Positions 1 to 17,913 are shown, counted from the stretch's first letter. The stretch is 64,000 nucleotides of DNA from Pseudomonadota bacterium (GCA_963204785.1 CAUJHG010000045.1:36185-100184), one strand, 5' to 3'. Notes: generated by a model not told the origin, from the sequence alone. Numbers and translations: made by a program.

Positions 1-1
1 C

Positions 2-559
2 GAGCCGGACGTCGCGCGACTGACGCGGCTGGCCGCAGAGCCCCGGGTGCTCGCGATCGGCGAGACCGGGCTCGACTACTTCCGGCGCACCGGCGACCTG
101 GAGTGGCAGCGCGAGCGCTTCCGCACCCACATCCGCGCCGCGCGCGCCTGCGGCAAGCCGCTGGTGATCCACACCCGCGCCGCCTCGGCCGACACGCTGC
201 GGCTGATGCGCGAGGAGGGCGCCGAGGCGGTCGGCGGGGTGATGCACTGCTTCACCGAGGACTGGGCCACTGCCGAGGCCGCGATCGAGCTCGGCTTCCT
301 GATCTCCTTCTCCGGGATCGTCACCTTCAAGAGCGCGCGCGATCTGCGCGAGGTCGCCGCCAGGGTGCCGGACGATCGGCTGCTGATCGAGACCGACTCG
401 CCCTACCTGGCGCCGGTGCCCTTCCGGGGCAGGACCAACGAGCCCGGCTTCGTGCGCCACGTGGCCGAGTGCCTGGCCGAGGTCCGCGGCACGACGCCGG
501 AGCGCATCGGCGAGCTCACCACAGGGAACTTCCATCGTGCATTCAGGCCGCCGCACTGA
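2..559 (+). CDS. tatD: TatD family deoxyribonuclease (5' partial)
   Basis: Motifs AIGETGLDY, PLVIHTR, GVMHCF, ISFSGIVTF, LLIETDSPYLAP; frame is open back to the window start. Confidence 0.93.
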   Translation, partial: EPDVARLTRLAAEPRVLAIGETGLDYFRRTGDLEWQRERFRTHIRAARACGKPLVIHTRAASADTLRLMREEGAEAVGGVMHCFTEDWATAEAAIELGFLISFSGIVTFKSARDLREVAARVPDDRLLIETDSPYLAPVPFRGRTNEPGFVRHVAECLAEVRGTTPERIGELTTGNFHRAFRPPH

Positions 560-1262
560 TCCCCTGCAGCTCCTGCGCGCGCTCCTGGCCGCGCTGGCGC
601 TGCTCTCGGCGACGCTGGGCGGAGCGCAGGCCCAGGGCGACGCCTATCGGGAGTTCTTCGACGCGATCGGGCGCGACGACGCGGCCCGCGTGGAGACGCT
701 GATCCTGCGCGGGATCAGCACCAACTCCGAGGACCCGAAGCTGGGTCCGGCGATCGTCCACGCCGCGCAGCAGAAGGCGCACGCGGCGATGAAGGCGCTG
801 CTGCTGTCGCCGGCGACGAAGGTCGACGCGCGCAACGCCGCCGGCGAGACCGCGCTGATGTACGCCGCGCTGCAGGGCGAGCTCGAGACCGTGAAGCTGC
901 TGCTCGCGCACGGCGCCGAGGTCAACCAGCAGGGCTGGACCGCGCTGCACTACGCCGCCAGCGGGGGCCAGCTCTCGGTGGTGCAGCTGCTGCTCGAGCA
1001 CCATGCCTACATCGACGCCGCCTCGCCCAACGGCACCACCCCGCTGATGATGGCGGCGCGCCAGCAGCGCCCGACGGTGGCCCGCTACCTGGTGGAGCAG
1101 GGCGCCGATCCGACGCTGGTCAACGAGTCCGGATGGACTGCTGCCGACTATCTCGAGCGCGTCGGCGACGCCGAGCACGCCCGCTGGATGCGCGAGCGCG
1201 CGCAGGAATTCGCGCGTCGCTACGGCAGCAAGGGCGCGCATGCGCCTGCCGGCCAGCGCTGA
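537..1262 (+). CDS. Ankyrin repeat protein with N-terminal signal peptide
   Basis: Repeats GETALMYAA, GWTALHYAA, GTTPLMMAA, GWTAADY; hydrophobic N-terminus ending AQA; start uncertain. Confidence 0.88.
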   Translation: MHSGRRTDPLQLLRALLAALALLSATLGGAQAQGDAYREFFDAIGRDDAARVETLILRGISTNSEDPKLGPAIVHAAQQKAHAAMKALLLSPATKVDARNAAGETALMYAALQGELETVKLLLAHGAEVNQQGWTALHYAASGGQLSVVQLLLEHHAYIDAASPNGTTPLMMAARQQRPTVARYLVEQGADPTLVNESGWTAADYLERVGDAEHARWMRERAQEFARRYGSKGAHAPAGQR

Positions 1263-1332
1263 GCCTGTCGCGGGCGCCGAACCTGTCCCCGACGCCGAAC
1301 CTGTCCCCGGCGCCGCTCCCGTCTCACCTGCC
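1261..1332. repeat. Imperfect 18-bp tandem repeat (3 good copies + 1 degenerate)
   Basis: gagcctgtcgcgggcgcc / gaacctgtccccgacgcc / gaacctgtccccggcgcc / gctcccgtctcacctgcc. Confidence 0.75.
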
Positions 1333-2115
1333 CTTGAACTCCGGCGCCCGGCGCTGCGCCATCGCGGCCACGCCCTCGCGGAAGTCCTCGGTGGCGAACT
1401 GCGCCTGCTGCTCGGCGGCCTCGTGCTCGGTGGCGGCCTGCACCAGGCCCGCCAGCTTGCCGCGCAGGGTCCGGCGCGTGGAGCTCACGGCGATCGGCGC
1501 CGAGCCCGCGATCTCCCGGGCCAGCGCAATCGCCTGATCGCGCACCGCAGCCGCCGGCACCGATTCCTCGGCCAGGCCGATCGCTGCGGCCTCGTCGCCG
1601 TCGATGCGCCGGCCGGTGTAGAACATCAGCGCCGCCTTCTGCGGCCCGACCAGCCGCGGCAGGGTCACGCTCAGGCCGAAGCCCGGATGGAAGCCCAGGC
1701 GGTTGAAGTTCGCGCTGAAGCGCGCCTCGGGACAGGTGATCCGGAAGTCCGCCACCAGCGCGAGCCCGAGCCCGCCGCCCACGGCCGGGCCGTGCACCGC
1801 CGCCACGATCGGCTTGCCGGTGCGGAACATGCGCACCGCGTGCGCATACGCGGGCGCAGGGCTGTTGGCCGCACCCGGGGCGCCGCCGCCGGGACGGGAG
1901 AAATCGGCGCCCGCGCAGAAGGACTTGCCCTGCGCGGCGAGGACGATCGCCCGGCAGCGTCGCTCCGCGTCGAGCCGCTCCAGGGCGTCGACCAGGCCGG
2001 TGATCAGGTCGAAATCCAGGAAGTTGTGCGGCGGGCGCCGCATCTCCAGCAGCGCGACATGCCCGTCGAGCTCGACCTGGACTGCGGGGGGCTGGACGTT
2101 CGGATTCTTCACCAT
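1324..2115 (-). CDS. Enoyl-CoA hydratase/isomerase family protein
   Basis: FCAGADF, PIVAAVHGPAVGGGLGLALVADFR, FHPGFG; ATG at 2115 preceded by AGGAGG. Confidence 0.9.
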   Translation of the reverse strand: MVKNPNVQPPAVQVELDGHVALLEMRRPPHNFLDFDLITGLVDALERLDAERRCRAIVLAAQGKSFCAGADFSRPGGGAPGAANSPAPAYAHAVRMFRTGKPIVAAVHGPAVGGGLGLALVADFRITCPEARFSANFNRLGFHPGFGLSVTLPRLVGPQKAALMFYTGRRIDGDEAAAIGLAEESVPAAAVRDQAIALAREIAGSAPIAVSSTRRTLRGKLAGLVQAATEHEAAEQQAQFATEDFREGVAAMAQRRAPEFKGR

Positions 2116-2268
2116 CTTCCTCCTGTGGATGCCGATCGACGATAGCATCGAATCCGGCCCCACTCGCCTGCGGGCGCCGGGACGGGCTGCCCCCGGCGGC
2201 GAACGCAGGTATAAGAGGGCGTCGCCCGGGCAGGTGCCCGGGACTCCATCCCAGGAATCCGAGCCCGC

Positions 2269-3255
2269 ATGATCCCCCTGTCCGTCCTCGACCTCGTGCC
2301 GGTGCGCCACGGCGACACCCCTGCCGATGCGCTGCGCAACACGCTCGACCTCGCCCGCCATGCGGAAGCTCTCGGCTATCGCCGCTACTGGATGGCCGAG
2401 CATCACAACATGACCGGGATCGCGAGCGCCGCCACCTCGGTGGTGATCGGCCACGTCGCCGGCGGCACCAGCACCATCCGCGTGGGCGCCGGCGGGATCA
2501 TGCTGCCCAACCACTCGCCACTGGTGATCGCGGAGCAGTTCGGGACGCTCGAATCGCTGTACCCGGGGCGCATCGACCTCGGCCTGGGGCGTGCTCCGGG
2601 GACCGACCAGCTGACCCTGCAGGCGCTGCGGCGCGACTGGTCCAGCGCGGAGCGCTTCCCCGACGACGTGATGGAGCTGCAGGCGCTCTTCGGGCAGGTG
2701 CAGCCCGGCCAGCGGATCCGCGCGGTGCCCGGCGCCGGGCTGAAGGTGCCGTTGTGGATCCTCGGCTCGAGCCTGTTCGGCGCGCAGCTCGCCGCCGCCC
2801 TGGGGCTGCCCTATGCCTTCGCCTCGCACTTCGCGCCCGAGGCCCTCGAGCACGCGCTGCAGATCTACCGCAACCGCTTCCGGCCATCGGAGCAGCTCGC
2901 GCGCGCCTACGCGATGGCCGGGATCAACGTCGTCTGCGCCGAGACCGACGCGCAGGCCACGCGCCTGTTCACCACGCTGCAGCAGCAGTTCACCAACATG
3001 GTGCGCAACACCCGCGGCCAGATGCAGCCGCCGATCGACGACATCGAAACCTACTGGACGCCTGCCGAGAAGGAGCAGGCGATGCGGATGCTCGCCTGCT
3101 CCTTCGTCGGCTCCCCCCAGACCGTGCGCGGCGCGCTCGAGGCCTTCGTCGCCCGCACCGGCGTCGACGAGCTGATCGTCAGCGGCCCGATCTTCGACCA
3201 CGACGCCCGCAAGCGCTCCTTCGAGCTGCTCGCGCAGGCGATGGCATCCCACTGA
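2269..3255 (+). CDS. Luciferase-like (LLM class) flavin-dependent oxidoreductase
   Basis: [43 protein letters not shown]. Confidence 0.92.
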
Positions 3256-3274
3256 ACCCGACAGGCGCAAGGCC

Positions 3275-4408
3275 ATGAAGACCTCCCGCATCACCGTCCT
3301 GGGCGCCGGCTTCGCCGGTCTGTCGACCGTGCGCGCCCTGCGCCGCCGTGACCGGCGCTGCGAGATCACCCTGGTGGCGCCGCGTCCGGAGCTGCACTAC
3401 CTGCCGGGAATGATCTGGATCCCCAGCGGCCTGCGCACCCGCGAAGACCTGGTGATTCCCCTGGAGCGCTTCCTGCGCCGTACGCGCGTGCGTTTCCACG
3501 CCGGGGAAGTCACCGGGCTGGAGGAGGGCGGTCGGGTCGTGAAGACCAGCGCGGGCGAAGAGCTCAACGACGCGCTGGTGATCGCCACCGGCGGCAGGTT
3601 CATCCGCAGGCTGCCGGGAATCGAGCACGCGATCACTCCCTGCGAAGGGATCGCCTCCGCCGAACGCATCCGCGACCGGCTGCGCGAGATGCAGGAAGGG
3701 CACATCGCCTTCGGCTTCGCCGGCAATCCGCAGGAGCCCAGCGCGATGCGCGGCGGACCGATGTTCGAGTTCGCGTTCGGGATCGACCAGCAGCTGCGCA
3801 GGGAGGGGCGGCGCGAGCGCTTCCGGCTCACCTTCTTCAGCCCCGCGCCGCGGCCGGGCAACCGGCTCGGACCCAAGGCGGTCGACCACCTGCTCGCCGA
3901 GATGCGCAGGCGCGGCATCGAGACCCACCTCGGCCACAAGCTGAAGCGCTTCGAGGCGGACCGCGTGGTCACCGAAGGCGGCGAGTTCCCGGCCGACCTG
4001 ATCCTCTTCATGCCCGGGATGACCGGCAACGCCTGGTTCGACGCGACCACGCTGCCGCGCTCGCCGGGCGGCCTGATCCAGGCGGACGCGCACTGCCGGG
4101 TGCCGGGCTTCGAGCGGGTCTACGTCTGCGGCGATTCGGGCAGCTTCCCCGGGCCCGACTGGATGCCCAAGCAGGCCCACATGGCCGACCTCCAGGCCGA
4201 GGCGGCAGCGGCCAACCTGATCGCGGACCTGCGCGGGCAGCCCGGCAAGACCGGCTTCAAGGTCGAGCTGATCTGCATCGTCGACTCCAACGACAAGGGA
4301 ACGCTGGTCTATCGCACACCGGAGCGCAACCTGCTGCTGCCCGCCACGGCGGCGATGCACTGGGCCAAGCGCGGCTTCGAGCGGCGCTATCTGCGCAAGT
4401 ATCGCTGA
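3275..4408 (+). CDS. sqrF: Sulfide:quinone oxidoreductase-family flavoprotein, type VI (SqrF)-like
   Basis: GAGFAG FAD motif, ATG, GD and PKQAHMA motifs; 377 aa; Cys123, Cys274 and Cys334 present, and no Cys in AMRGGPMFE. Confidence 0.72.
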   Translation: MKTSRITVLGAGFAGLSTVRALRRRDRRCEITLVAPRPELHYLPGMIWIPSGLRTREDLVIPLERFLRRTRVRFHAGEVTGLEEGGRVVKTSAGEELNDALVIATGGRFIRRLPGIEHAITPCEGIASAERIRDRLREMQEGHIAFGFAGNPQEPSAMRGGPMFEFAFGIDQQLRREGRRERFRLTFFSPAPRPGNRLGPKAVDHLLAEMRRRGIETHLGHKLKRFEADRVVTEGGEFPADLILFMPGMTGNAWFDATTLPRSPGGLIQADAHCRVPGFERVYVCGDSGSFPGPDWMPKQAHMADLQAEAAAANLIADLRGQPGKTGFKVELICIVDSNDKGTLVYRTPERNLLLPATAAMHWAKRGFERRYLRKYR

Positions 4409-4506
4409 GGGCGGCGGGAACCTTCCGAACGGGTGAAGGGCGACGAGGCCGGGGGTGGCGCAGACCCTGGGCCTCGCCGGGGATCGGTGTGCGGTCTGTT
4501 TCGTCA

Positions 4507-4534
4507 ATTGCGCATAATGTATATTATGTAAACT
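4507..4534 (+). other. dif: dif site (XerC/XerD chromosome dimer resolution site)
   Basis: ATTGCGCATAA-TGTATA-TTATGTAAACT; 24/28 identical to E. coli dif GGTGCGCATAATGTATATTATGTTAAAT; intergenic AT-rich island. Confidence 0.93.
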
Positions 4535-4569
4535 CGAAACCAAACAAGGAAAGGCAGCGTCGAAGACAG

Positions 4570-4706
4570 TCCCGCCATAGCAGCCCCGCCATAGTCCGAT
4601 GGACCGAAGCCAGGTTCCAGAACCCATTCCTTCGTTCATCCCTTCGCATCCTCGGTCGATCTTCCGTGATCTTCCACTTTCGGCGCCAAACCGGTTCGCA
4701 TCTTCG
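4570..4706. repeat. Short direct repeats next to dif: CCCGCCATAG x2 and phased ATCYTYC units
   Basis: cccgccatag at 4571 and 4585; ATC-pyrimidine units at 4638, 4648, 4659, 4669, 4700. Confidence 0.55.
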
Positions 4707-4758
4707 CTCATGGCCGGGACAATTCCCGCATCGGGCAACCGCAGACCAAGGAGAAGAG

Positions 4759-6225
4759 ATGCAGATGGACCTCGGCACTTTCTATGGCACGTTGCAGGAG
4801 GCGTTCGGCAGCCACATCCCCCAGGTGCTTGGCGCCTTGCTGATCCTGGCCCTTGGCTGGGTGCTCGCGGTTTTCGTGCGGGCGGGCATCCGTCGCCTGC
4901 TGGGGCTGGCGCGACTGAACGCTCACCTGCGCGGGCTGCTGCGCATGGAAGCGGATGCCGAGACTGCCGTCGCGATCGTCGGGTTCTGGTTCGTCCTTCT
5001 CGCCACCCTGGTGGCGGTGCTCAACGCGCTGAACCTCACCTTGCTGTCGGAACCGTTCGCCACCGTGGTGCGCGACGTGATCAGCTACCTCCCCCAACTG
5101 CTGGCCGGTGCGGCGCTCGGGCTCGGCGCCTGGCTTCTGGCCAGCCTGCTTCGCGCATTGACCACCAGGGCGCTGTCGCTGACGACGGTGGACGAGCGGC
5201 TCTCGGAACACGCCGGGCTGACGCCGATCAGTCGCAGCGCCGGCAACGTGCTGTTCTGGCTGGTGATCCTGTTCTTCCTGCCCGCGGTGCTGGGCGTGCT
5301 GCGCCTGGAGGGGGTCCTCGACCCGATGCGGGATCTGCTCGGAAGCCTGCTGGGCTTCGTCCCCAATGTCCTGGGGGCCGCGATGATCGCCCTCGTGGGT
5401 TACGTGGTGGCGCGCATACTGCGCGCGCTGGTCACCGACCTTCTGGCGGCCGCCGGTGGTGACCGGATCAACGCGGGGATCGGCCTCGATCCATCGATCC
5501 GCCTTCCCCGGCTGGCCGGGACCCTCGTCTTCATCCTGGTCTTCGTCCCCTCCCTGATCGCTGCGCTCGACGCGCTGAAGGTCGAGGCGATCTCGCGACC
5601 GGCGACCAGGGTGCTCGACCAGATCCTGGCCGCGACACCGCACATCATTGCCGCGGCGCTGATCCTGATGCTGACCTGGTATGTCGCGCGCTTCGCTGCC
5701 GGCCTGCTCGCCCGGCTCCTCGAGAGTGCCGGCTTCGACGGGCTGCCGGCGAAGCTCGGTCTGTCGCACGCCTTCGCCGACGGAACCAGGCCGTCACGCC
5801 TCGCGGGCCGACTGCTGATGTTCTTCGCCCTGCTCTTCGCCAGCGTCGAGGCTGCCTCGCAACTCGGCTTCGATCAGGTGAGCGAACTGGTGACGACATT
5901 CATCGGCTTCGGCGGCGATCTCCTGCTCGGTGGAGCGATCCTGGTGATCGGGTTCTGGCTCTCGGGAGTCGCGGCGGCGGTCATCGCCCGCGCCAGTCCC
6001 GAGGGCGGCCGGCTGCCTGCGAACATCGCGCGCTTCGCCATCCTGGGGCTGGTCCTCGCCATGGGACTGCGTGCGATGGGAATCGCCAACGAGATCGTCC
6101 AGATGGCCTTCGGGCTGACGCTGGGGGCGGTGGCGGTGGCCGTGGCGCTCGCGTTCGGGCTCGGGGGACGTGAAGCCGCCGGCAAGCTCCTGGAGCACTG
6201 GATCAGCCGGCTTCGGAAGGACTGA
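4759..6225 (+). CDS. Polytopic membrane protein with conserved TM-helix repeats (CmpX / MscS-associated family)
   Basis: Repeated units such as IPQVLGALLILALGW, LPQLLAGAALGLGAW, VPNVLGAAMIALVGY, TPHIIAAALILMLTW; C-terminal ALAFGLGGRE; RBS AAGGAG before ATG 4759. Confidence 0.8.
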   Translation: MQMDLGTFYGTLQEAFGSHIPQVLGALLILALGWVLAVFVRAGIRRLLGLARLNAHLRGLLRMEADAETAVAIVGFWFVLLATLVAVLNALNLTLLSEPFATVVRDVISYLPQLLAGAALGLGAWLLASLLRALTTRALSLTTVDERLSEHAGLTPISRSAGNVLFWLVILFFLPAVLGVLRLEGVLDPMRDLLGSLLGFVPNVLGAAMIALVGYVVARILRALVTDLLAAAGGDRINAGIGLDPSIRLPRLAGTLVFILVFVPSLIAALDALKVEAISRPATRVLDQILAATPHIIAAALILMLTWYVARFAAGLLARLLESAGFDGLPAKLGLSHAFADGTRPSRLAGRLLMFFALLFASVEAASQLGFDQVSELVTTFIGFGGDLLLGGAILVIGFWLSGVAAAVIARASPEGGRLPANIARFAILGLVLAMGLRAMGIANEIVQMAFGLTLGAVAVAVALAFGLGGREAAGKLLEHWISRLRKD

Positions 6226-6264
6226 CCCGGCACGCGCGGCTGCCGGTCACCGCGTGTCCCTCCT

Positions 6265-9200
6265 TCAGCGACCAGCCAGATCCGCGTCCAGGTTCTGGTA
6301 CACGCGCTCGATCTGCGCTCCGAAGGCGGACGCGGCGCTGCCCGCGGGCGCGTGGGCGCAGATTGCGATGACCAGCTCGAAGCGATGGCGGATCGAGTCG
6401 ATCTCGAAGAGGTTCGGTTCGCAGCCGATCGCCTCGCGGTAGCTCTCCTCGATCTCGCGGGCAAGCGGGGACAGACGGGAGGCCTCGGGCTGGCCGTGCG
6501 CGCTGCGCGTGGCCGGCGGGGGCCTGAACGCCGCCCGTGACAGCCGCAGCTCGGCAAGCGCGCTGCGGTCCCAGAAGTCGTTCAGCACGTAGTCCGGGCG
6601 CTGCAGCTGCTCGATCAGCCGGGCCGCCTCGGCGTCGAGCCAGGCGAGCAGCGCCCCGAGCCCGAGGGGGCCGCCGAGGTCCTGCCCTGCGACCACAGCG
6701 AGCTCGCTGCCGTCGATCGACGGCTCCGCTTCGATGCCCGCTGCACGTGCGGCCCGGTCGACGGCATGGGCGCCCTCGATCGCGTCGGCAGCTCCGTGCG
6801 CCCTGCCCGCCTTCGCCCGAGCGCTGCTGCGCGCGCCTGCGCTCAGCACGCGCAGGAACACGCCGCTGAGCAACCCTGCGGCCAGCGCGTAGGCCTGGTC
6901 GGACTCGAGCCGGCGGTCGGACGCAGGCGGGGTGCTCGCGAGCCCGTCGTGGGCGCGCATTGCGAGCCCGCCGGCCTCCCGCTCCAGCGCGCGCCGCTGC
7001 AGCAGCTGCAGCGCCCTACCGTAGAAGCCCAGCGCCTCGCGCAGCTGCGCCCGCGCCTGCGGGCGGTCGGCGCAGCGCAGGTGGATGCGGGTGGCGCGCA
7101 GCGCGATGCTCCCGCGAAACAGCTCGATCGCCGCGGTGGCGCGATCGGAGCGCGCGCCTGCGTGCGCCCTGCCCGCGCCCGCCGGCGCCACTCCGGCCTC
7201 GGTGCGCAGCGCCACGATGCGGTCGAACACCGTCTTCGCCCGCTGTATCGCAGCCTGGGCCTGCGCAGCGTCGAGCCTGCCCGGCTGCGCCAGCGCACGG
7301 CGTACGATCAGGCTCGCGTAGATCTCGAGCGTCTCGAAGTCGACGAGCTGCGGCGCCTCGGCCAGCACCTGGTCGAGCCTGGCGATCGCCGCCGCGCTCT
7401 CGCCCGAGAGCGCGAGGAAGACGCCGTGCGCGGCCAGGACTTCCGGCGCCGCGTCCCAGCCCATCCGGGCGCCCGCAGCGAGAGCCCGGTCGACCTGCCT
7501 GCGATCCTCCTGGGCGGTGCGCGCGGTGACGTTGGCCGCGCGGTTGCGGATCTCCTGCGCGAGCTCGCGCGCGGACACGTAGGCGCGCGCCGGCTCGCGT
7601 GCGGTGCGCACCTGGAGCCGGAACTCGGGGTCTCCGTAGCACTGGTAGGCGCCCCAGGTGAGGCCCCGCGGGTTGTTCCGGTAGACGGCCGCGCGCGCTG
7701 CGTGCACCGCCCGCGCCAGGCACTCGCCGGCGAGCATCTGCTGGTAGAAGACCCTGGCGAACTGCGCGGCCTCCTGGTCGTTGACGGTCCAGCCGGCGAC
7801 CACCACTGCGCGCGCGCCCAGATCGATGAAGCGGGTGCCGACGCTCGCCGCGAACGTGGCTGCCTTCGGCCCGCCCGCGATCGGCGCCGCGGCTGCGGCC
7901 GGGCCCGGACCGGCGCCGCCGGCGTCGCGCCCGAGGTGGCAGCAGTTGACGAAGACCAGGTCGGGCACGCGGCGGATGCGCCCTACGTCGTCGGCGGTGA
8001 AGCGCGCATCGTCGCTCAGCACGATCCCGGCCCGCACTCCCCTGCCCTCGCCGTCGGCGTCGGCCTCCGCCTCGAGCGTGCCGTGGCCCGCGACGTGCAG
8101 GACGCTGTGGCGCCCGGTGAGGATCGCCGAGAAGACCCGGCTGGCCGTCGGGCGCTCGAGCAGGGTGGCGCCGAAACCCGAGGCCTCGAGGAGCGCGGCC
8201 ACCTCGGTGGCCTCCCTTGCGGCCGCGGGCAGCTGCGCGAAGCCGGCCGTGCCCTGCAGGCTCGGATCGCCGATCACCAGGGCCTGGAATCCGCCGGCGA
8301 GCCGGGCGGCCCCGCCGCCGTCGCTGCGGACCCGGCGGCGGATCAGCGCTGCGCGCACCGACAGCGGCTCGGCCCGGGTGAAACCGTCGGCCGGGCCGAT
8401 GCTGTCGCACAGCACCTCCCAGGGGATCGCCGACATGTCGTCGTCCAGCTCGAGCTCGGTGTCGCGGAAGTCCGCGAAGCGCTCCTTCAGCGACGTGGGC
8501 AGGAGCAGCTCGTAGAGCAGCGCGCCGACGTCCGGGTCGGCCGACGCGGCCGCGCGCTCCACCAGCCCCTGGACCAGCGCCGACGCCACCTCGATCGAGA
8601 ACTGCTCCGAGCGCGCGCGGTCGGACACGTAGCGGACCGTGACTGCGCCGTCCCGGTCGCGCGCGAAGCTCAGCCGCTGGAAGACCGCGCTGTCCGGTTC
8701 CCAGAAGAGCCGGCGCCGCCCTCCGGCGCGCGGCTCGACCTCGAAGCGCTCGCCGGTGGCCGGGCGCAGCCAGCCCTCGAAGGCGGCAGCCTCCAGCAGC
8801 GCGTTCAGCGCGTGCGCCGCCTCGTGTGCGCTGTCCTCGTAGAGCTCGACGAACTCGAGCTGGGCGATGCCCACCCGCTCGTCCAGCCCCTGCTCGACGA
8901 GCTGGTCGGCCGCGTAGCGCACTCCGCGAACGATCGCCGCCACGCTCTCGCGCACCGAGATCGACCTGGTGCCGGTGCCGATCAGCAGCGAGCTCAGCCG
9001 CAGCTGCAGCGGCTGGCCCGGGATGCGCGCGCTGTAGTGGCTGCGATCGACCGCCATCCGCAGCACCGCCCGCTGCACTGCCTTGGTGAGCTTCTCGCTG
9101 GTCAGCTCGCCCCAGCGGCCCAGGCCGAGCGCGACCGCCCCGCCGAAGCGCAGCCCCGCCGGATACTCGGGCCCGGTCCGGGCGCCCTGCTCGGCGCCTG

Positions 9201-12200
9201 CGTCCGGCGTCTGAGCGTCGGCCTGGCCCGGCGCCTCGGGCGGATGCGGGTCGCGCGCCGAGCCGAGGAAGGCCGTCTGCCCGGTCTCGCCGCGAAAGAG
9301 CCGGGTCGAGGCCAGCAGCGCGAGCTGCCCCGAGAGCTTCTCGTCGATGCGCAGGCCGGCGCTCGACAGGTGCTCGTCCAGGTAGTGCCCGAAGAGCACG
9401 GGGAAGCGCGCGTACTCGAGGTTGCCGTGCACCACGCCCACGCTCAGCGGCCGGGCCTCGGGTCTCGGGCGGGTCATCGGCAGGTGTCCGGAGACGATCG
9501 CCGCGCCGATCCGGGCCGGCGCCAGCGCGGCGAGGCGCGCGATCTGCTCGCCTTCCACCGCCTGGCCGGTGCGCCTGCGTTCGCCCGCGCGCGTGCGGCG
9601 ATGCGCCGCCAGCGTCGGGATCCGGCCGGTGGCCCCGGTGCTCAGCAGCTCCGCGTAGGCGTCGAAGACGTGGGGGGCGTCGGCGAGGTCGCCGTGCGCC
9701 ACCGGCGCCACCCAGGTGCGCGTCGCGTCGATCACCCCGGAGTCGTAGCTGACCCGGCCGTCGCCCTCGCTGCTGTACTCGAAGACGATGCGCGCGGTGT
9801 TGGCCGAGCCGAAGGGCCCTTCGCCGGGCCCCGCAGGCGCGTCGTCGAGCTCGAGCAGCCGCACCGGCGTCTCGTCGGCCACCCCGGCGACGTACACGCC
9901 GCGGAGGTCTTCCGACAGCTGCCTGAGCTCCAGCGCGAGCAGCTGCGGATCGGCGACGCGGCGCGCGGCCTCGAGCAGCGCCTGCGACGGGATCGCCACG
10001 CGGTCGTCGGCCTGGCGCACCGCGCGCCAGGTCTGCTCGTCCCACAGCGAGCCGCGGTTGCAGCACTGCTTCGACCAGTCGCCCGCGGGCAGCAGCTCGA
10101 GCAGGCCCTGGAAGCCCGCGGCGATCCCGGCGATCTGCCGGTAGCTGGTGCAGGCGTCGATCAGGGCGATGCCCCCGACGAAGAGGTCGCGCGTGGTGAG
10201 CACCGCGGCCGGCGCGAGCGAACCCCGGTTCGGGACACCCAGCATCAGCAGGCGCCCGCCCGCCGCGGCGAAGCGCTCGCGCAGCGCCTGCCCCTGCGGG
10301 CCGCGCAGCGCCACCCGCAGCGCGATCCCGCCCATCGAGTGGGCCACCAGGTGCACCGGCGTGCGCCAGCGCTCGGCGAGCGCGAGCGCGCGGTCCAGGC
10401 TCGAGCGGATGGCCGGCGCCGCCGCCTCCAGCGAGCCGCGCCAGTCGAAGGGCAGCGCGACCGGGTGGAATCGCTTGCCCTTGTCCAGGTAGGCGAGCAG
10501 CCGCGCGTAGCTGGCCGGCAGCACGCCGGTGGCGACGGCCGGCGCCGCCGCGTCGGCGGCGAGCGCGCGGATCCCGCCCCAGGCCATGCGTCCGAGCTCG
10601 AACCAGGTCGGCCGCTCCTCGCCTTCGATCGACAGTTCGCTGCCCATGATTCCCGGCAGCACGAGGACCAGCGGGCGTGGGTCCTTGCCGGCGACCTCGG
10701 CAAGCCTTGCCGCGGGCGGCTTGCGGCAGATCTCGATGCCCGCCGCGGGGGCGCGCATGCCGTCGGCGTGGACATCGATGCGCTGGAAGCGGGTGTCGTT
10801 GCCGGCCAGCGCGCAGTCCAGCTGCGTCGCCGACTCGGCGTTGCGGAAGTAGCCGAAGTGCGAGACGGTCGCGCCGCGCACCGGGAAGTTCCAGGCCGGG
10901 CCCGATCGGGGCGTGCCGGCGGTCATCGCCGCGGTCTGGACGACGAAGTCGTTCGCCTCCAGGTAGAAGGCATTGCTCAGGATCACCGCGAGCGCGTGCA
11001 GCGGGCGCTGCAGGCTCGCGTCCGCGTTGCCGGAGATCGCGTGGAGATCCGCCCCGGTGCGCGCCGTGGGATCGTTCAGCACCCGCGTGAGCATCGACCC
11101 CGGCATCTGGGCCTCGAGCCCCGGCAGGATGCGCGGGTCTGCGCGCGTGACCGCGACCTGCTTGACGAACTGGTCGATCCCCTCGGCCAGCGGATTGCCG
11201 GCCAGGCCGGTGCCCCAGCGCAGCGCGAGGCTGATCGCGCCCAGGTAGCGATCGAGCCGCTCGCTGGCCAGCAGGGTTCCGCGCGCGGGACAGGCCACGC
11301 GCACGAAGCGGCGCAGCCTGATCGCCTTGCGCGCGAGCAGCGCGTCGAGCTCGCGCAGCGCCTGCGCGTCGGGGTGGCCGGCCTGGTCGAAGGCGTCGAG
11401 CGCGCGCGGCTCGAAGGCGGGCCAGCCTTGTCCGTTCGCGTCCGGCTGCCCGCGCGCGAGCAGCTCGCCCACCAGTCCGCCGCGCGAGTGCGACACCAGG
11501 TCCACGGTCGCACCGTCGGGCAGGCACCTGAGCAGCCCCAGCGCGTTGCGCACGGGGCTGGCCGTGAGCGTGCGGTGCTCCCAGCCGAGGACCTGCCCGT
11601 ACTCCCGCCCCAGCCTGCGCACGATCGCCGGGTGTTCGCGCCACAGCTCCGCGAAGCTGCCGCGGGTGCTCGACGCGGTGCCATGGACGAAGACGAGCAG
11701 CGGGCTCACCGGCTGCGCTGCGGATCCAGCCACCTCGCCCGGAGCCAGGCAGCGCTCGACCTCGAAGGCCGCGCCGTCGGTGCGCAGCACGAGCATGCCT
11801 TCGCGCTCGGCGGGATCCCCATCGAAGCGGAACTCGAGCGTCGCGTGCTCGCGCCAGCGGCAGATCCCCCACGCGGCCAGGCTCGCGCCCAGGCCGATCG
11901 CGAGCCTGCGCGCGTAGTCCTTCCAGGCCATCAGCTCGCCCGGTTCCAGGTGCTCCCAGAGCGCGTCGACCCCTGCGGGAAGCGTCACCCGCTCGACGCC
12001 GAAGAGCGCGAGCACCGACTCCCGGCTCCCACCGCGCGCGCCCTCGGCCTCCAGCGGGATCGCATCGGGGACGACGAAGCTCTCCGGCGCACCGTCCGCG
12101 GCGCGCGTGGCCGTGCGCGCCAATCGCGCGCGGAACACGCCCACGGTCATGAAGGCGGTCGAACCGTCCTCGAGCGTCAGGGTGGCGACGTCGTCGTCCC

Positions 12201-12339
12201 GAACGGCCCCGGGCCCCGTGAGCGAGACCGTCAGCGGCGGCTGCGCGCGAGTGCGCCGCGGCGACTGCGCGGCGAGCACCGGCTCGATGCGGACCGCGGC
12301 CTGCAGGGCCGCGAGATCGGGGGGCTGGGCTGGGTTCAT
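6265..12339 (-). CDS. 2024-aa multidomain protein: 2x alpha/beta-hydrolase (lipase/LCAT-like) + macro-like + CHAT caspase-like protease + TPR-like tail
   Basis: VHGTASS/VSHSRGG/NDFVV/SHFGY; LPGIMGS/AHSMGG/GDGRV/AHGDL; CHAT dyad HVAGHG and FVNCCH, WGAYQCYGDP; ATG 12339 with AGGAG RBS. Confidence 0.85.
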   Translation of the reverse strand: MNPAQPPDLAALQAAVRIEPVLAAQSPRRTRAQPPLTVSLTGPGAVRDDDVATLTLEDGSTAFMTVGVFRARLARTATRAADGAPESFVVPDAIPLEAEGARGGSRESVLALFGVERVTLPAGVDALWEHLEPGELMAWKDYARRLAIGLGASLAAWGICRWREHATLEFRFDGDPAEREGMLVLRTDGAAFEVERCLAPGEVAGSAAQPVSPLLVFVHGTASSTRGSFAELWREHPAIVRRLGREYGQVLGWEHRTLTASPVRNALGLLRCLPDGATVDLVSHSRGGLVGELLARGQPDANGQGWPAFEPRALDAFDQAGHPDAQALRELDALLARKAIRLRRFVRVACPARGTLLASERLDRYLGAISLALRWGTGLAGNPLAEGIDQFVKQVAVTRADPRILPGLEAQMPGSMLTRVLNDPTARTGADLHAISGNADASLQRPLHALAVILSNAFYLEANDFVVQTAAMTAGTPRSGPAWNFPVRGATVSHFGYFRNAESATQLDCALAGNDTRFQRIDVHADGMRAPAAGIEICRKPPAARLAEVAGKDPRPLVLVLPGIMGSELSIEGEERPTWFELGRMAWGGIRALAADAAAPAVATGVLPASYARLLAYLDKGKRFHPVALPFDWRGSLEAAAPAIRSSLDRALALAERWRTPVHLVAHSMGGIALRVALRGPQGQALRERFAAAGGRLLMLGVPNRGSLAPAAVLTTRDLFVGGIALIDACTSYRQIAGIAAGFQGLLELLPAGDWSKQCCNRGSLWDEQTWRAVRQADDRVAIPSQALLEAARRVADPQLLALELRQLSEDLRGVYVAGVADETPVRLLELDDAPAGPGEGPFGSANTARIVFEYSSEGDGRVSYDSGVIDATRTWVAPVAHGDLADAPHVFDAYAELLSTGATGRIPTLAAHRRTRAGERRRTGQAVEGEQIARLAALAPARIGAAIVSGHLPMTRPRPEARPLSVGVVHGNLEYARFPVLFGHYLDEHLSSAGLRIDEKLSGQLALLASTRLFRGETGQTAFLGSARDPHPPEAPGQADAQTPDAGAEQGARTGPEYPAGLRFGGAVALGLGRWGELTSEKLTKAVQRAVLRMAVDRSHYSARIPGQPLQLRLSSLLIGTGTRSISVRESVAAIVRGVRYAADQLVEQGLDERVGIAQLEFVELYEDSAHEAAHALNALLEAAAFEGWLRPATGERFEVEPRAGGRRRLFWEPDSAVFQRLSFARDRDGAVTVRYVSDRARSEQFSIEVASALVQGLVERAAASADPDVGALLYELLLPTSLKERFADFRDTELELDDDMSAIPWEVLCDSIGPADGFTRAEPLSVRAALIRRRVRSDGGGAARLAGGFQALVIGDPSLQGTAGFAQLPAAAREATEVAALLEASGFGATLLERPTASRVFSAILTGRHSVLHVAGHGTLEAEADADGEGRGVRAGIVLSDDARFTADDVGRIRRVPDLVFVNCCHLGRDAGGAGPGPAAAAAPIAGGPKAATFAASVGTRFIDLGARAVVVAGWTVNDQEAAQFARVFYQQMLAGECLARAVHAARAAVYRNNPRGLTWGAYQCYGDPEFRLQVRTAREPARAYVSARELAQEIRNRAANVTARTAQEDRRQVDRALAAGARMGWDAAPEVLAAHGVFLALSGESAAAIARLDQVLAEAPQLVDFETLEIYASLIVRRALAQPGRLDAAQAQAAIQRAKTVFDRIVALRTEAGVAPAGAGRAHAGARSDRATAAIELFRGSIALRATRIHLRCADRPQARAQLREALGFYGRALQLLQRRALEREAGGLAMRAHDGLASTPPASDRRLESDQAYALAAGLLSGVFLRVLSAGARSSARAKAGRAHGAADAIEGAHAVDRAARAAGIEAEPSIDGSELAVVAGQDLGGPLGLGALLAWLDAEAARLIEQLQRPDYVLNDFWDRSALAELRLSRAAFRPPPATRSAHGQPEASRLSPLAREIEESYREAIGCEPNLFEIDSIRHRFELVIAICAHAPAGSAASAFGAQIERVYQNLDADLAGR

Positions 12340-12522
12340 CGTCGACTCCTGGATCGCGGCCTGCGCGTCGCGTCGCTGCTGCCGCCGCAAACCGGAACGC
12401 GCGCACGCGCCTGCCCACGATCTGCAGCCGGATCGGCCTATTCTGCAAGGATGACGCCAGCGAGGCCACCAGGTCGGCGCGTTCCCCCGGCTGGCGTCAT
12501 GTCACGAAAGGAGAGCCCGCCG

Positions 12523-13518
12523 ATGAAGACCCCGCTGTGCACCCTGCTCGGGATCGAGCTGCCGATCATCCAGGCCGCGATGGGCGGCGCGAGCAACCCG
12601 CAACTGGCCGCCGCGGTGAGCAACGCGGGCGGGCTCGGGATGCTGGCGCTGTCCTGGGGCCCTGCCGAAGGCGTGCGCGCGGCGATCCGCGCCACCCGGG
12701 AGCGCACCGACCGGCCCTTCGGCGTGAACCTGATCCTCGACTGGCCCCAGGAGGAGCGCCTCGCGGTGTGCCTCGAGGAGCGCGTGCCGGTCGTGTCCTT
12801 CTTCTGGGGAGACCCGGGAACGATGATCGATCGGGTCCACGAGGCAGGCCTGCTGGCCGCCTGCACCGTGGGCAGCGCTGCGCAGGCGAGGCAGGCGGTC
12901 GCTGCCGGGGCGGACCTGATCGTCGCGCAGGGCTGGGAGGCGGGCGGCCACGTCTACGGCCAGGTCGGCGCCCTGCCGCTGGTGCGCTCGGTGGTGCAGG
13001 CGGTGGCGCCCACGCCGGTGGTGGCCGCCGGCGGGATCGCCGACGGGCGCGGACTGGCCGCGGCGCTGGCGCTGGGTGCGGCGGGCGCCTGGATCGGCAC
13101 CCGCTTCCTGGCCACGCCCGAGGCTACGGTCCACGACGAGTACAAGGAGCGGGTGCTGGCGGCGCGCGAGACCGACACCGTGCACACCGAGCTCTTCGAC
13201 ATCGGCTGGCCCGATGCCCCGCACCGGGTGCTGCGCAACTCCACCTACGACGCCTGGGAGGCCGCGGGACGCCCGCCGCGCGGGCAGCGCCCCGGCGAGG
13301 GGGAAGTGCTGGCGCAGAGCCCGCGGCATCCGATGCCGCGCTACGGCGCATCCACCCCCGGCCCGGGCGCGCAGGGCGACATCGAGGCGCTGTCGCTGTG
13401 GGCGGGCCAGAGCGTCGCCCAGGTCGACCGCATCGTGCCCGCCGCGGAGGTGGTGCGCACGATCGCAGCCGAAGCGCGCGAGGCGATCGAGGTGATCGCC
13501 GCCCTCGCACGCGCCTGA
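12523..13518 (+). CDS. Nitronate monooxygenase (NPD) family protein
   Basis: PIIQAAMGG, AQGWEAGGH, VVAAGGIADGRG, AWIGTRF, WAGQ; RBS AAGGAG. Confidence 0.9.
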   Translation: MKTPLCTLLGIELPIIQAAMGGASNPQLAAAVSNAGGLGMLALSWGPAEGVRAAIRATRERTDRPFGVNLILDWPQEERLAVCLEERVPVVSFFWGDPGTMIDRVHEAGLLAACTVGSAAQARQAVAAGADLIVAQGWEAGGHVYGQVGALPLVRSVVQAVAPTPVVAAGGIADGRGLAAALALGAAGAWIGTRFLATPEATVHDEYKERVLAARETDTVHTELFDIGWPDAPHRVLRNSTYDAWEAAGRPPRGQRPGEGEVLAQSPRHPMPRYGASTPGPGAQGDIEALSLWAGQSVAQVDRIVPAAEVVRTIAAEAREAIEVIAALARA

Positions 13519-15034: not shown

Positions 15035-15802
15035 TCAGCCCTGCAGCGAGCGCCTGCGCAGCCGCCGCATGCCCCCCAGCCAGCGGTCGATGTCGTCGCC
15101 CTTGCGGCGCACGTATTCCTCGACCTCCGGGTGGGGCAGGACGTGGAAGCGCTCCTCGCGGATCGCTTCCACGACCGTGCGGGCGAGCTGCTCGGGCTCG
15201 ATGATCCCGTCGGTCTGCCCGTCGCCGAGCTGGCGCGGGGCCATCGCGGTGTTCACCCCCTGCGGACAGAGCACCGACACCCTGATTCCGTCGTCGCCGT
15301 GGGTGATCGACAGGAACTCGGCGAGCTTGACCGCAGCCGCCTTGGTCACGGTGTAGGGGCCGGTGCCCAGCGCGGCGAGCAGGCCTGCGGCCGACGCGGT
15401 GTTCAGCAGGTAGCCCGAACCGCGTTCGATCATCGAGGGCAGCACCGCGCGGGCCGCGTACAGGTGGGCCATCACGTGCAGCTCCCACTGCTTCTGCCAG
15501 ACCTCGTTGGCGGCGTCGGTGAGCACCCCCGGTCCGCCGGCGCCGGCGTTCGAGCAGAACAGGTCGATCGGGCCGTATCTCTCCACCGTCGCGCGCACCA
15601 GCGCCTGGATCTGCGCCTCGTCGGTGACGTCGCAGGCCATGCCGTCGCAGCCGATCGCCGCGGCCGCTGCGCGCACCTTCGCCTCGTCCAGGTCGGCGAG
15701 CATCACCGCCTTCGCGCCCTCCGCCAGGAAGGCGCGCGCCATCGCCTGCCCGATCCCGCCGCTGCCCCCGGTGATCACCACCACCTTGTTTCTGAGCTCC
15801 AC
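15035..15802 (-). CDS. Short-chain dehydrogenase/reductase
   Basis: TGGSGGIG, SNAG, YTVTK; GTG start at 15802 with GAGGAG RBS. Confidence 0.9.
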   Translation of the reverse strand: MELRNKVVVITGGSGGIGQAMARAFLAEGAKAVMLADLDEAKVRAAAAAIGCDGMACDVTDEAQIQALVRATVERYGPIDLFCSNAGAGGPGVLTDAANEVWQKQWELHVMAHLYAARAVLPSMIERGSGYLLNTASAAGLLAALGTGPYTVTKAAAVKLAEFLSITHGDDGIRVSVLCPQGVNTAMAPRQLGDGQTDGIIEPEQLARTVVEAIREERFHVLPHPEVEEYVRRKGDDIDRWLGGMRRLRRRSLQG

Positions 15803-16127
15803 CTGCGCACTCCTCGATCGGCTCCTCGCCGCTTGCGTTGGATGGATCGCGCCTCGGCCGCTCGCCGGCCGGGCCGATGCCTGCTGCGTCCCCCGGGTCC
15901 GTCCCGGGGCCTGCGCGCGCCGGCGACTCGGCGCTGGCACACCTGTCGACGATGCCCGAGCCCGACCGATTGCACACGACGCGGATCGAAGAACCGGAAC
16001 GGGCGTGCGCGGGGGGGCCTGGCTGCGCGTGATCCGGCGGGCACGGGTCGATCGACCGCCCCAGGACTCCGTCCCCCGCCGCGACGCCCGACTCCTCGTC
16101 GCAGCGGGTGGGGTGGCACAGGATGTC

Positions 16128-17369
16128 TCAGGCGGCCTGGGGCCGTCCCGCCAGCCGCAGCGCCGCGACGCCGGCGATCGACACCGCACCGATGACCAGG
16201 TAGCCGGGAAGGTAGCTTCCCGAGTGCTGGTGGAGCAGGCCCATGACCCCCGGGCCGATCATCACGCCGGGCACGCCCCATACCCGGGACATTCCGTAGA
16301 GCCGCGCGTAGATCCCGACTCCGTAGGCCTCGGCGAGCACCAGCGACTGCACGGTCACGAAGTTGCCCAGCGTGCTGCCGTAGGCAACGATGCACAGCAG
16401 CAGCCAGGCGGGGTGGTCGACGAAGCCGCAGCCCCACAGCGCCAGTCCCTGCACGATCAGCAGCAGCGCCATGAAGCGCCGGTTGCCGATGCGCGCCATC
16501 AGCCAGACCGCCGGGAAGCGGGCCAGCACGCTGCTGGCGGCCATCGCCGAGATCGCAGCGCTGGCAAAGGCGGTGCTCATCCCGTGGCCCATCATCAGGT
16601 TGAACAGATGGGTCTGGCCGCCGAAGTGGGCGGACATCCCCAGCATGAAGGCGAGGCTCGCGCCACGGAAGAAGCGGGTGCGCACCGCCCGGCGGTAGGC
16701 AGCGTCGGAGCGGTCCTCGGCGCTCGCCGCCGCTGCGCCAGGCCCAGGCACCTTGCCATCGGGCGCGAGCCCGAGTTCGGCAGGCCAGGAGCGCAGCACC
16801 CCCCAGATCAGCGGCAAGGTCACCGCGGCCAGCAGCGCAGCGATCCACGGGCTGGCCCGGTCCAGGCCGATCTCCCCGACCAGCAGCGCCACCGGAGGCA
16901 CCAGCACCACCGCCCCGAACGAGTTCCCGGTCGACGCGATCGACAGCGCCGCCGAGCGCCGCTCGCTGAACCAGCGCGTCACCAGGGTCGTGCACGGGAT
17001 CAGCGCGCCGGTCCCGAAGCCGACTCCGAGGACCGCGTAGAACAGGTACAGCGCCGCGACGCTGCGCACCAGCGGCAGCGACAGGAAGGCGCCGATCATC
17101 AGCACGCACCCTGCGCTCATCACCAGGCGCACGTCGTGGCGATCGAGCAGACGTCCGACCACGAGCCCGACGACTCCGCCCGCAGCCGAGAAGGCCCCCG
17201 ACGCGAAGGACACCTGCCCGAGCGAAAACCTGCCTTCGTCGACGAAGGCGTGCAGGTACACCGACAGCCCGTAGACCGTGAGCCCGGACACCACGGTGAG
17301 CACGACGAACACCGCGGCGACGAGGTACCAGCCGTAGAAGACCCTGCTGCGAGGCTGCCCGCCGCTCAT
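16128..17369 (-). CDS. MFS transporter (OFA/monocarboxylate-like)
   Basis: FYGWYLVAA, GRLLDRHDVR, RWFSERRSAALS; about 12 TM segments; alternative start at 17426. Confidence 0.82.
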   Translation of the reverse strand: MSGGQPRSRVFYGWYLVAAVFVVLTVVSGLTVYGLSVYLHAFVDEGRFSLGQVSFASGAFSAAGGVVGLVVGRLLDRHDVRLVMSAGCVLMIGAFLSLPLVRSVAALYLFYAVLGVGFGTGALIPCTTLVTRWFSERRSAALSIASTGNSFGAVVLVPPVALLVGEIGLDRASPWIAALLAAVTLPLIWGVLRSWPAELGLAPDGKVPGPGAAAASAEDRSDAAYRRAVRTRFFRGASLAFMLGMSAHFGGQTHLFNLMMGHGMSTAFASAAISAMAASSVLARFPAVWLMARIGNRRFMALLLIVQGLALWGCGFVDHPAWLLLCIVAYGSTLGNFVTVQSLVLAEAYGVGIYARLYGMSRVWGVPGVMIGPGVMGLLHQHSGSYLPGYLVIGAVSIAGVAALRLAGRPQAA

Positions 17370-17439
17370 CGGCGCGGCCTCGCCCGGTCGGCCCGCGTCT
17401 GCCCGCACGCGCGCCGCCTGGGCCACCGGCGCATCGCGC

Positions 17440-17913
17440 TCACTGCGGGCCGGCCAGTCCGTAGTACTCGAGCACCGCCCGGTCGCGCAGCGGTCCCGGC
17501 TCGAAGACCTCGAGCAGCACGCCGTCCGGAGCCTCGACCATGAAGTAGCCGGCGCCGTCGTACTCGCGCAGCTCGCTGCGCTCGCACAGCCCCGCCGCCT
17601 TCATCCGCTCGTAGAAGTCGCGCAGCCCGACCACCTGGATGCCGAGGTGGTGGACCGCATTCGGCCCCTGCCCCCGCGGCGGCTTCTCGTACAGGTGCAT
17701 CGCACCGTTGCCGATCTTCATGAAGACGTTGCGCGTGCCCGCGTAGGGGCCGTCGTGCACCACCTCGGCGCCGAACCAGCGCCGGTAGAACCCGATCGTC
17801 GCCTGCAGGTCGGAGCACATCAGGTGCGGGTGGTGCAGGTGCGCGCGCGCCGTGCTGCCGTAGGCGTAGCGCAGCGGCGCTTGCGCTGCGCCGGGGGCGT
17901 CTTGCTTGCTCAT
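17440..17913 (-). CDS. VOC (glyoxalase-like) family protein
   Basis: [32 protein letters not shown]. Confidence 0.82.

Follow-up and report, generated by a model that had tools for sequence, protein, structure and literature searches.

A 2024-residue CHAT protein with two lipase-like hydrolase domains: a single-gene candidate for a protease-gated effector

The gene at positions 6265 to 12339 (minus strand) of a 64,000-nucleotide stretch of DNA from a Pseudomonadota bacterium (GCA_963204785.1 CAUJHG010000045.1:36185-100184; the whole stretch is called the window here) encodes a protein of 2024 residues, the giant protein, in which two lipase-like hydrolases, a macro-like domain, a caspase-like CHAT protease and a helical tail are predicted to follow one another in one chain. 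Our tentative reading, to which we give a probability of about 0.45, is that the giant protein would be a self-contained, protease-gated and membrane-attacking effector of the abortive-infection or cell-death type, with self-cleavage at arginines. The original observation is far beyond chance, judged from alignments of between 31 and 76 homologs, about 30% identical, in which the catalytic residues do not vary.

Translation of the window gives an uninterrupted open reading frame (ORF) at 6265..12390 (-) whose product has an ordinary composition. The start is placed at the ATG at 12339, which has an AGGAG motif just upstream, and the resulting 2024-residue product agrees with the one first described; a search of the protein collection returned a record (P0003) of identical sequence and length. 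The predicted mass is about 215 kDa. Neither a signal peptide nor a transmembrane segment was found in the giant protein, the maximum 19-residue hydropathy being 1.68, and a transmembrane or secreted location was rejected on these grounds; the protein is predicted to be soluble and cytoplasmic. The window has a G+C content of about 74%, and because of this spurious long ORFs are common in it. One of them, a plus-strand ORF of 2250 residues that overlaps the giant gene, was set aside as an Arg/Ala/Gly-rich high-GC shadow of which only the 3' end is real, namely as a nitronate monooxygenase (NMO)-type gene. The parts of the giant gene are as follows.

6265..12339, minus strand: whole coding sequence, 2024 residues plus stop (N-domain, hydrolase 1, hydrolase 2, macro-like domain, CHAT, helical tail)
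12346..12350, minus strand: Shine-Dalgarno motif AGGAG, read from the sequence, with a 6-nucleotide spacer to the ATG at 12339
11740..12339, minus strand: N-terminal domain (residues 1-200), beta-rich with a long helix; invariant R102-G in a low-confidence loop, codon 12034-12036
10780..11739, minus strand: hydrolase 1 (residues 201-520), DUF7379-type alpha/beta hydrolase with a lid insertion, resembling lipase-type folds
9625..10674, minus strand: hydrolase 2 (residues 556-905), LCAT/LPLA2-type phospholipase-like alpha/beta hydrolase
9460..9624, minus strand: Arg-rich, predicted disordered linker (residues 906-960; pLDDT <50) with invariant Arg in the R914-R917 cluster
8590..9459, minus strand: macro-fold or leucyl-aminopeptidase (LAP)-N-like domain (residues 961-1250) with GHY and GLGxxGxLT motifs
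7624..8529, minus strand: CHAT caspase-like protease (residues 1271-1572), dyad H1419/C1467
6268..7623, minus strand: TPR-like tail (residues 1573-2024), all-helical with high pLDDT, diverged from the TPR-S-bearing tail of the family

The homologs were aligned in sets of 31, 75 and 76 sequences, and the two halves of the protein were folded separately by AlphaFold2 with homolog alignments as input (residues 1-935, pLDDT 83.0 and pTM 0.71; residues 905-2024, pLDDT 83.6 and pTM 0.82) and compared with the PDB by Foldseek. Hydrolase 1 matches the Pfam family DUF7379 (PF24096) with an E-value of 1e-31, scoring 110.8 bits against a cut-off of 33, in two stretches around the lid insertion. Its triad, S285 (SHSRGG), D464 (NDFVV) and H494 (SHFGY), is invariant in the alignments, as is its oxyanion motif HGT (219-221). 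The same holds for hydrolase 2, both for the triad S668 (AHSMGG), D860 (GDGRV) and H882 (AHGDL) and for the oxyanion motif PGxMGS (562-567). As a single sequence hydrolase 2 scores 18.3 bits (E 1.5e-3) with Pfam LCAT (PF02450), under the curated cut-off of 21, and for this reason we term it LCAT-like and not a Pfam member. A family profile searched against the PDB finds LCAT/LPLA2 chains at E 2.6e-8, and Foldseek places hydrolase 2 near LPLA2 (4x92, E 8e-9, TM-score 0.55-0.59 to target) and Tle4 (4r1d, E 5e-8). For the N-half as a whole the structural matches are LPLA2, LCAT, the type VI secretion system (T6SS) phospholipase Tle4 and lipases of family I.5 and of staphylococci; the N-terminal 214 residues have no Pfam match.

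The protease domain covers profile positions 3-289 of 289 in the CHAT family (PF12770; E 6.8e-28, 98 bits against a cut-off of 24). Its histidine, H1419 of HVAGHG, is encoded at 8083-8085 and the cysteines C1466/C1467 of FVNCCH at about 7939-7944; H1419-G1420 and C1467 are invariant in the 31- and 75-sequence alignments. Foldseek aligns this region at probability 1.00 with Csx29/TPR-CHAT, separase, the SAVED-CHAT filament and caspase-9, and also returns the CHAT anti-sigma factor DdvA. The tail that follows matches, at E 5e-10 and 3e-9, a profile built from the tails of 69 TPR-S-bearing relatives from which the clade of the giant protein was excluded. Between hydrolases and protease lies a domain for which Foldseek returns LAP N-domains (E 6.5e-4), macroH2A1.1 (TM-score 0.67-0.70) and PARP9 macro 2 (TM-score 0.59), and for which a profile search of the PDB returns the LAP N-domain 3jru (E 3e-4). 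Its conserved loops, GHY...SAE and GLGxVGxLT, sit at the places of the ligand motifs and resemble the 'GLGK' type of LAP N-domains more than the canonical NAAN/GGG motifs. The first loop, GHYLDEHLSSAG, deviates from the family consensus GHYxGDxIxSAE and is identical in a relative of 78% identity. A lineage-specific, predicted disordered insert of about 30 residues (~1031-1062), rich in Pro, Ala, Gly, Glu and Gln, is missing in distant relatives.

Much of this had been anticipated in the original prediction, which was made from the DNA alone. It had proposed one gene of 2024 codons at 6265-12339, and the frame, its ATG and its AGGAG bear this out; all eight motifs that it named (SHSRGG, NDFVV, SHFGY, AHSMGG, GDGRV, AHGDL, HVAGHG and FVNCCH) occur in the translation. 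Its map of two hydrolases, a CHAT domain and a TPR-like tail agrees with Pfam, AlphaFold and Foldseek, and the AlphaFold mapping that it suggested returned LPLA2/LCAT/Tle4-like folds, a macro/LAP-N-like domain, a Csx29/separase/SAVED-CHAT-like protease and a TPR-like tail. The map is right, and the middle domain, which it called uncharacterised, can now be placed as a macro/LAP-N-type fold.

How might these parts work together? We propose that the fast-evolving helical tail, a diverged relative of TPR-S, would sense a trigger, perhaps with help from the conserved macro-fold domain, and that sensing would turn on the CHAT protease, probably via oligomerisation as in SAVED-CHAT. The protease would then cut its own chain at R102 and in the R914-917 linker; these cuts would free or unlock the two lipase/phospholipase domains, which would degrade membrane phospholipids and so bring about cell death or arrest. 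In relatives that have a Peptidase_C14 neighbour the CHAT domain would likely feed a CHAT-to-caspase cascade, and others would be wired to TIR signal generators. Neither a C14 nor a TIR partner is found in the clade of the window copy, which, with the putative sensor, protease and effector in one chain, is the minimal form of the arrangement. The sensing of a trigger by the tail, the self-cleavage at the arginine linkers, the lipid substrates and the outcome in cell death or defence are all steps that we infer.

The two proposed cleavage regions are family-invariant arginines in segments of pLDDT <50. One is R102-G, between the N-terminal beta-domain and hydrolase 1; the other is the Arg of the linker 'PPxxR(G/A)' between hydrolase 2 and the macro-like domain. 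Together, R102 and the R914-R917 linker bracket the lipase pair. We consider these arginines to be candidate cleavage sites, which fits the logic of caspase-activated alpha/beta-hydrolase zymogens, and bacterial immune caspase-like proteases are reported to cut after Arg (10.1101/2024.10.24.620036). Would the protease have to cut its own chain at all? One could keep the conflict role and suppose that CHAT acts on other proteins while the lipases become active through allostery or oligomerisation, the uncut chain serving as a multi-effector warhead. That SAVED-CHAT forms filaments and acts on a separate substrate, and that 29 of 84 surveyed relatives adjoin a C14 gene that looks active and has its Cys motif conserved, speak in favour of such an arrangement. 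The cascade would be inapplicable to the window copy, however, because its genome has no C14 gene; the invariant arginines lie precisely in the disordered linkers around the lipase pair; and the published alpha/beta-hydrolase zymogen, to which we return below, favours cutting of the hydrolase module. We regard this arrangement, the foremost of the alternatives, as rather unlikely.

The giant protein is not unique. When one genome per species was scanned with a degenerate pattern, at least 586 loci of the family came to light, those listed belonging to Nitrospirota, Acidobacteriota, Desulfobacterota, Beta-, Gamma- and Alphaproteobacteria, Bacteroidota, Verrucomicrobiota, Methylomirabilota and Actinomycetota, and an exhaustive HMMER search with a profile of the N-half returned 2447 cluster representatives (50% identity) at E<=1e-30, the best 150 of which are almost all 1750-1920 residues long. 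The architecture is constant and common to thousands of relatives. Databases label them 'CHAT domain-containing protein', in one record 'lysophospholipase'; our literature search found no paper on the family or mentioning DUF7379.

The genomic company of the family was surveyed at 84 loci, at which all flanking ORFs were clustered and then annotated. No conserved housekeeping synteny was found among them. A Peptidase_C14 gene of about 263 residues, with its Cys motif conserved, lies directly upstream on the same strand at 29 of the 84, and TIR-domain genes lie within 10 kb at about 24, two of them fused to the giant protein and some carrying SIR2 or FGE-sulfatase domains; all ten TIR calls that were checked with Pfam were confirmed. 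At least 44 of the 84 loci have a C14 or a TIR gene, a lower bound since many contigs are short. TIR genes are rare in bacterial genomes, and it is from this rarity that we argue for a probable enrichment. The other recurrent neighbours are a TPR-S protein of about 650 residues (12 loci), a directly downstream Peptidase_M15_3-like gene (11), a 525-residue protein with no Pfam match (6), patatin (5), clostripain-type C11 (3) and nSTAND1 (3), and restriction-modification (R-M), CRISPR, DRT, Gabija-like and MADS-like genes are scattered among the neighbourhoods. Nine plasmids carry relatives, among them a 76-kb mobilizable Azotobacter plasmid on which the relative stands beside a type I R-M system, Fic proteins, a PD-(D/E)XK nuclease, a recombinase and insertion sequence elements; no relative was found among 50,697 phage records.

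A broader reading of the whole family can be built on these neighbours, and we offer it as doubtful. The family would be a widespread, so far unrecognised and NTPase-independent class of innate-immune effectors related to Thoeris. Its TPR-S-type tail and macro-fold domain would jointly respond to an NAD-derived messenger made by the TIR protein or, in partner-less clades such as that of the window copy, to a phage or stress cue bound directly; CHAT would then fire the C14 cascade and also cut its own chain at the invariant arginines, releasing two membrane-dissolving phospholipases. If this were true, the family would be a bacterial analogue of apoptosome plus executioner in one polypeptide.

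A quite different role would be that of an exported or injected toxin against competitors, as T6SS or contractile-injection cargo whose cysteine protease would free the phospholipases inside the target in the manner of MARTX autoprocessing. Hydrolase 2 and the N-half resemble Tle4 in fold, one relative adjoins a contractile-injection-system operon, and another lies 3 kb from an Hcp gene. Such adjacency is found at only 2 of the 84 loci, however, no small immunity gene recurs beside the giant gene in the 84, the giant protein lacks a signal peptide, a transmembrane segment or a delivery domain of the PAAR, VgrG, Rhs or MIX type, and the TIR, C14 and TPR-S partners are intracellular modules of the immune type. 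We hold this role to be very improbable.

The distribution of the window copy itself can be followed at several depths. A search with the DUF7379 family model found no DUF7379 domain in a frame of about 2000 residues in 21 genomes of the same genus, from which it follows that the giant gene is accessory; the flanking MS-channel-like gene is likewise missing from these congeners. The closest relative, of 78% identity and on a metagenome contig (L097), keeps the order NMO, giant gene, MS-channel-like gene, the last at 7659-9125 of that contig, and the next relative, of 53% identity, does not keep this arrangement. The giant gene and the MS-channel-like gene may travel together. A tree of the conserved core groups the window protein with copies from Chitiniphilus, Methylibium, Rubrivivax and Rhodoferax in one clade with long branches, no member of which has a C14, TIR or M15 neighbour. 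The gene occurs in near-identical form in at least 20 metagenomes from wastewater, bioreactors, biofilms and activated sludge, contributed by at least 8 studies, and the main contigs of four of these studies, which are independent, span it and both neighbours with no insertions or deletions.

Within this near-identity the changes are unevenly spread. Among those listed, the strain differences in the giant gene number 27, of which 15 are synonymous and 12 nonsynonymous; none of the 12 listed nonsynonymous ones falls within residues 215-1470, and most of them affect the tail or the N-domain. The tail has both the densest strain polymorphisms and the lowest identity to relatives and is thus the fastest-evolving part of the protein, with the N-domain also among the fast ones. 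Identities to the closest relatives, P0004 and P0005 respectively, are 87% and 66% for the macro-like domain, the best conserved of all, 85% and 62% for CHAT, 81% and 59% for hydrolase 1, 79% and 55% for hydrolase 2, 71% and 47% for the N-domain, and 62-76% and 38-41% for the tail.

A number of observations weigh against our reading of the giant protein as a protease-gated effector, and they are best considered together. Of its sensor parts, the macro-like domain is at least as close to the LAP N-domain, which binds no ligand, as to macro domains that bind ADP-ribose, and the tail has no match to Pfam TPR-S (PF20308) even at E<=1, though most homologs do. The two half-models were made apart, so that any intramolecular autoinhibition is not visible in them. 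The invariant arginines could be structural or regulatory and not scissile, which is possible because Csx29 does not cut after Arg. PADLOC-DB v2 has no family that matches the giant protein at E<=1, and neither Peptidase_C14 (PF00656) nor TIR_2 has a match anywhere in the source genome, which is 93% complete. The G+C content of the giant gene is unremarkable for the window, and because the 78% relative shares the NMO/MS-channel synteny the gene is not visibly mobile here. Its neighbours in the window are metabolic and transport genes (NMO, MFS, SDR, luciferase-like monooxygenase). Lastly, the functions proposed here for the family are predictions from sequence and structure.

Some of these points would also suit a non-immune role. 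The protein could be a regulated lipase/acyltransferase complex for membrane lipid remodelling, for storage-lipid turnover or for stress- or development-related autolysis in a biofilm or floc, in which the tail would act as a scaffold and CHAT would be a protease for maturation or turnover; the metabolic surroundings of this copy, the synteny kept in its closest relative, its intact and stable presence in the wastewater, biofilm and sludge metagenomes, and the many surveyed loci with no recognisable defence neighbour speak for such a protein. Yet a housekeeping enzyme of this kind would not readily explain why the gene is missing from 21 congeners, why the family is patchy over phyla with no conserved synteny, why TIR and caspase genes are, judged from the rarity of TIR, in strong excess nearby, why one copy sits in a plasmid-borne R-M island, or why the tail evolves fast, as sensor domains do. 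We consider a non-immune role decidedly unlikely.

On the larger claims of the original prediction, then, the outcome is divided. Its description of a stand-alone gene with no operon partner is right for this copy and its small clade and does not extend to the family, about half of whose 84 surveyed loci have a caspase-like or TIR gene. Its call of a conflict system is supported by the context of the family, with its patchiness, absence of synteny, C14 and TIR neighbours and plasmid copies, but not by the metabolic neighbours of the window copy. The constant housekeeping synteny free of any defence association, which it had named as the finding that would tell against it, is not what the 84 loci present. 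The PADLOC comparison it had suggested returned no model for the giant protein. The self-cleavage that it proposed stays a putative step, for which the invariant arginines in the disordered linkers and the published caspase-activated hydrolase zymogens give indirect support.

The giant gene is convergent with the MS-channel-like gene, which ends at 6225, and divergent from the NMO-type gene, which starts at 12524; the syntenic NMO homolog of the closest relative matches PF03060. These orientations are those first proposed, a CmpX-like gene convergent and a nitronate monooxygenase divergent, and the dif site then said to be nearby is present as well, at 4507-4534, the sole one in the window.

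4489-6225, plus strand: MS-channel-like gene with four MS_channel_1st_1 (CmpX-like) repeats
4507-4534, plus strand: dif-like XerCD site ATTGCGCATAATGTATATTATGTAAACT, 24 of 28 positions identical to E. coli dif; context only, outside the system

The dif-like site falls in an AT-richer gap upstream of the MS-channel-like gene; since the listed start of that gene, 4489, overlaps the site, the true start must lie further downstream. That the giant gene is a dif-integrated (IMEX) element was considered and rejected, there being no second dif-like site in the window. NCBIfam holds no match for the giant protein.

Some further features of the window, its source genome and the surveyed loci are recorded here as observations in their own right. 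The source genome has a partial paralog of the MS-channel-like gene on another contig (C51), and at 537-1262 (+) the window encodes a 241-residue protein that consists almost entirely of ankyrin repeats (Ank_2, E 6e-57), which are uncommon in free-living bacteria. Past the MS-channel-like gene, L097 carries a Gp49 (HigB-like)/HTH_37 toxin-antitoxin pair at 9760-10282, where the window has the dif site and an FAD oxidoreductase. The 53% relative has, at 1925-2251 of its contig (L098), a 108-residue gene of the ubiquitin family (PF00240) about 500 bp upstream on the opposite strand; ubiquitin-like genes are unusual in bacteria and often linked to immunity. In an Azonexus metagenome-assembled genome (L005) a contractile-injection-system operon at 1-6699 (Pvc16_N, sheath, two gp19-like tube genes, DUF5908, CIS_tube, baseplate V/gpD) is divergent from a string of TPR-S, C14, giant, M15-like and 525-residue genes, an adjacency seen only once. 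At 15451-17700 of the same locus, and also at L027, L039 and L055, all from Rhodocyclales or Burkholderiales, a Peptidase_M15_3-like gene of about 220 residues follows the giant gene, often with overlapping stop and start, and is itself followed by the 525-residue protein with no Pfam match and sometimes then by a patatin phospholipase; the three products may be further envelope-directed effectors or regulators. A stand-alone DUF7379 hydrolase of 444 residues is found at 3875-7737 of L095 (genome G030, of the same order), after and with stop and start overlapping those of an 843-residue protein that has only a weak CHAT-like match (hhalign 67%, E 5e-5) and no catalytic Cys. This pair, which we have not counted as evidence, may be a split and degenerate version of the hydrolase-CHAT pairing.

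Why should such a protein deserve attention? Protease gating of death effectors is coming to be seen as a dominant principle of bacterial immunity that has parallels in the caspase pathways of eukaryotes, and the family of the giant protein, with at least 2,400 clusters at 50% identity in many phyla, is among the largest and most constant such architectures without experimental study. If our reading is true, the family would widen the reach of caspase-zymogen logic in bacterial immunity. The idea itself has been anticipated by the published work on caspase-activated zymogens, and what this copy adds is mainly the minimal, partner-less form, which, in an abundant wastewater bacterium, makes a convenient test case: a single-gene system in which to ask how CHAT is activated, whether the lipase pair is a zymogen and whether macro-fold and TPR-S modules read NAD-derived signals.

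The giant protein cannot be filed under Thoeris, SAVED-CHAT/PCaspase, Craspase or any PADLOC system, because their defining partners are absent here, and each of the known systems resembles it in part. In Thoeris type VIII (TPR-containing ThsI) a TPR domain is suspected to read cyclic ADP-ribose, and in type II the sensors are Macro domains, which read His-ADPR (10.64898/2025.12.03.692087, which cites Burroughs and Aravind, 2020, J Bacteriol for the definition of the TPR sensor), and type IV has a caspase-like effector with a TIR signal generator (10.1101/2024.10.24.620036). The giant family likewise has a caspase-type protease together with a macro-fold domain and a TPR-S-type repeat, with the nearby and fused TIR genes described above, but there is no TIR gene in this genome, the two-gene operon is not conserved, and the macro-like domain of the giant protein is nearer to the LAP N-domain type.

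For the protease, the comparison is with Csx29 of the type III-E Craspase and with separase, which are both repeat-regulated clan-CD proteases with a His-Cys dyad and provide the best structural matches (7zoq, 8eey, 5fby) to CHAT plus helical repeat; Csx29 differs in that its TPR is N-terminal, its activation is RNA-guided through Cas7-11, its substrate, Csx30, is a separate protein that is not cut after Arg, and it has no lipase domains. In the SAVED-CHAT of the type III-B CRISPR-CBASS hybrid of Haliangium ochraceum, ligand drives the formation of filaments, which then cleave and activate PCaspase (Steens et al., 10.1101/2023.06.23.546230; PDB 8tl0). The fusion of CHAT to a sensor, putative in the giant protein, and the structural match are shared, and the upstream C14 genes of the family mirror the pair of CHAT and PCaspase; the giant protein, by contrast, has a TPR-type tail and a macro-like domain in place of SAVED, carries its lipases in cis, and has neither a CRISPR or CD-NTase context nor a C14 gene in its genome. 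For the lipases, hydrolase 2 shares with LCAT, LPLA2 and Tle4 the fold, the AHSMGG nucleophile elbow, the PGxMGS oxyanion motif and the Ser-Asp-His triad, whereas it is predicted to be intracellular, is embedded in a multidomain protein and is only about 15-17% identical to them.

There is probably no closer parallel to the whole than the LcCaspase/LcHydrolase pair of Lysobacter capsici, in which a caspase-like protease activates an alpha/beta-hydrolase zymogen by two cuts after Arg and causes cell death (Evans et al., 2025; 10.1101/2025.11.14.688446), a pairing of alpha/beta-hydrolase and caspase that had been predicted computationally in conflict systems (Kaur et al., 2020; PMC7159879). Both couple a cysteine protease of clan CD to an alpha/beta-hydrolase, a death effector there and a putative one here, and to variable sensors, and the invariant arginines of the giant protein flank its hydrolases. 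Unlike that pair, the giant protein holds everything in one 2024-residue chain, uses CHAT and not C14, has a macro-fold domain inserted, and has two hydrolases, DUF7379 and LCAT/LPLA2-like, of 300-350 residues each, a comparison for which LcHydrolase was taken by its description only. By analogy, the nearest functional likeness of the giant protein would be a protease-activated alpha/beta-hydrolase module, here fused and enlarged.

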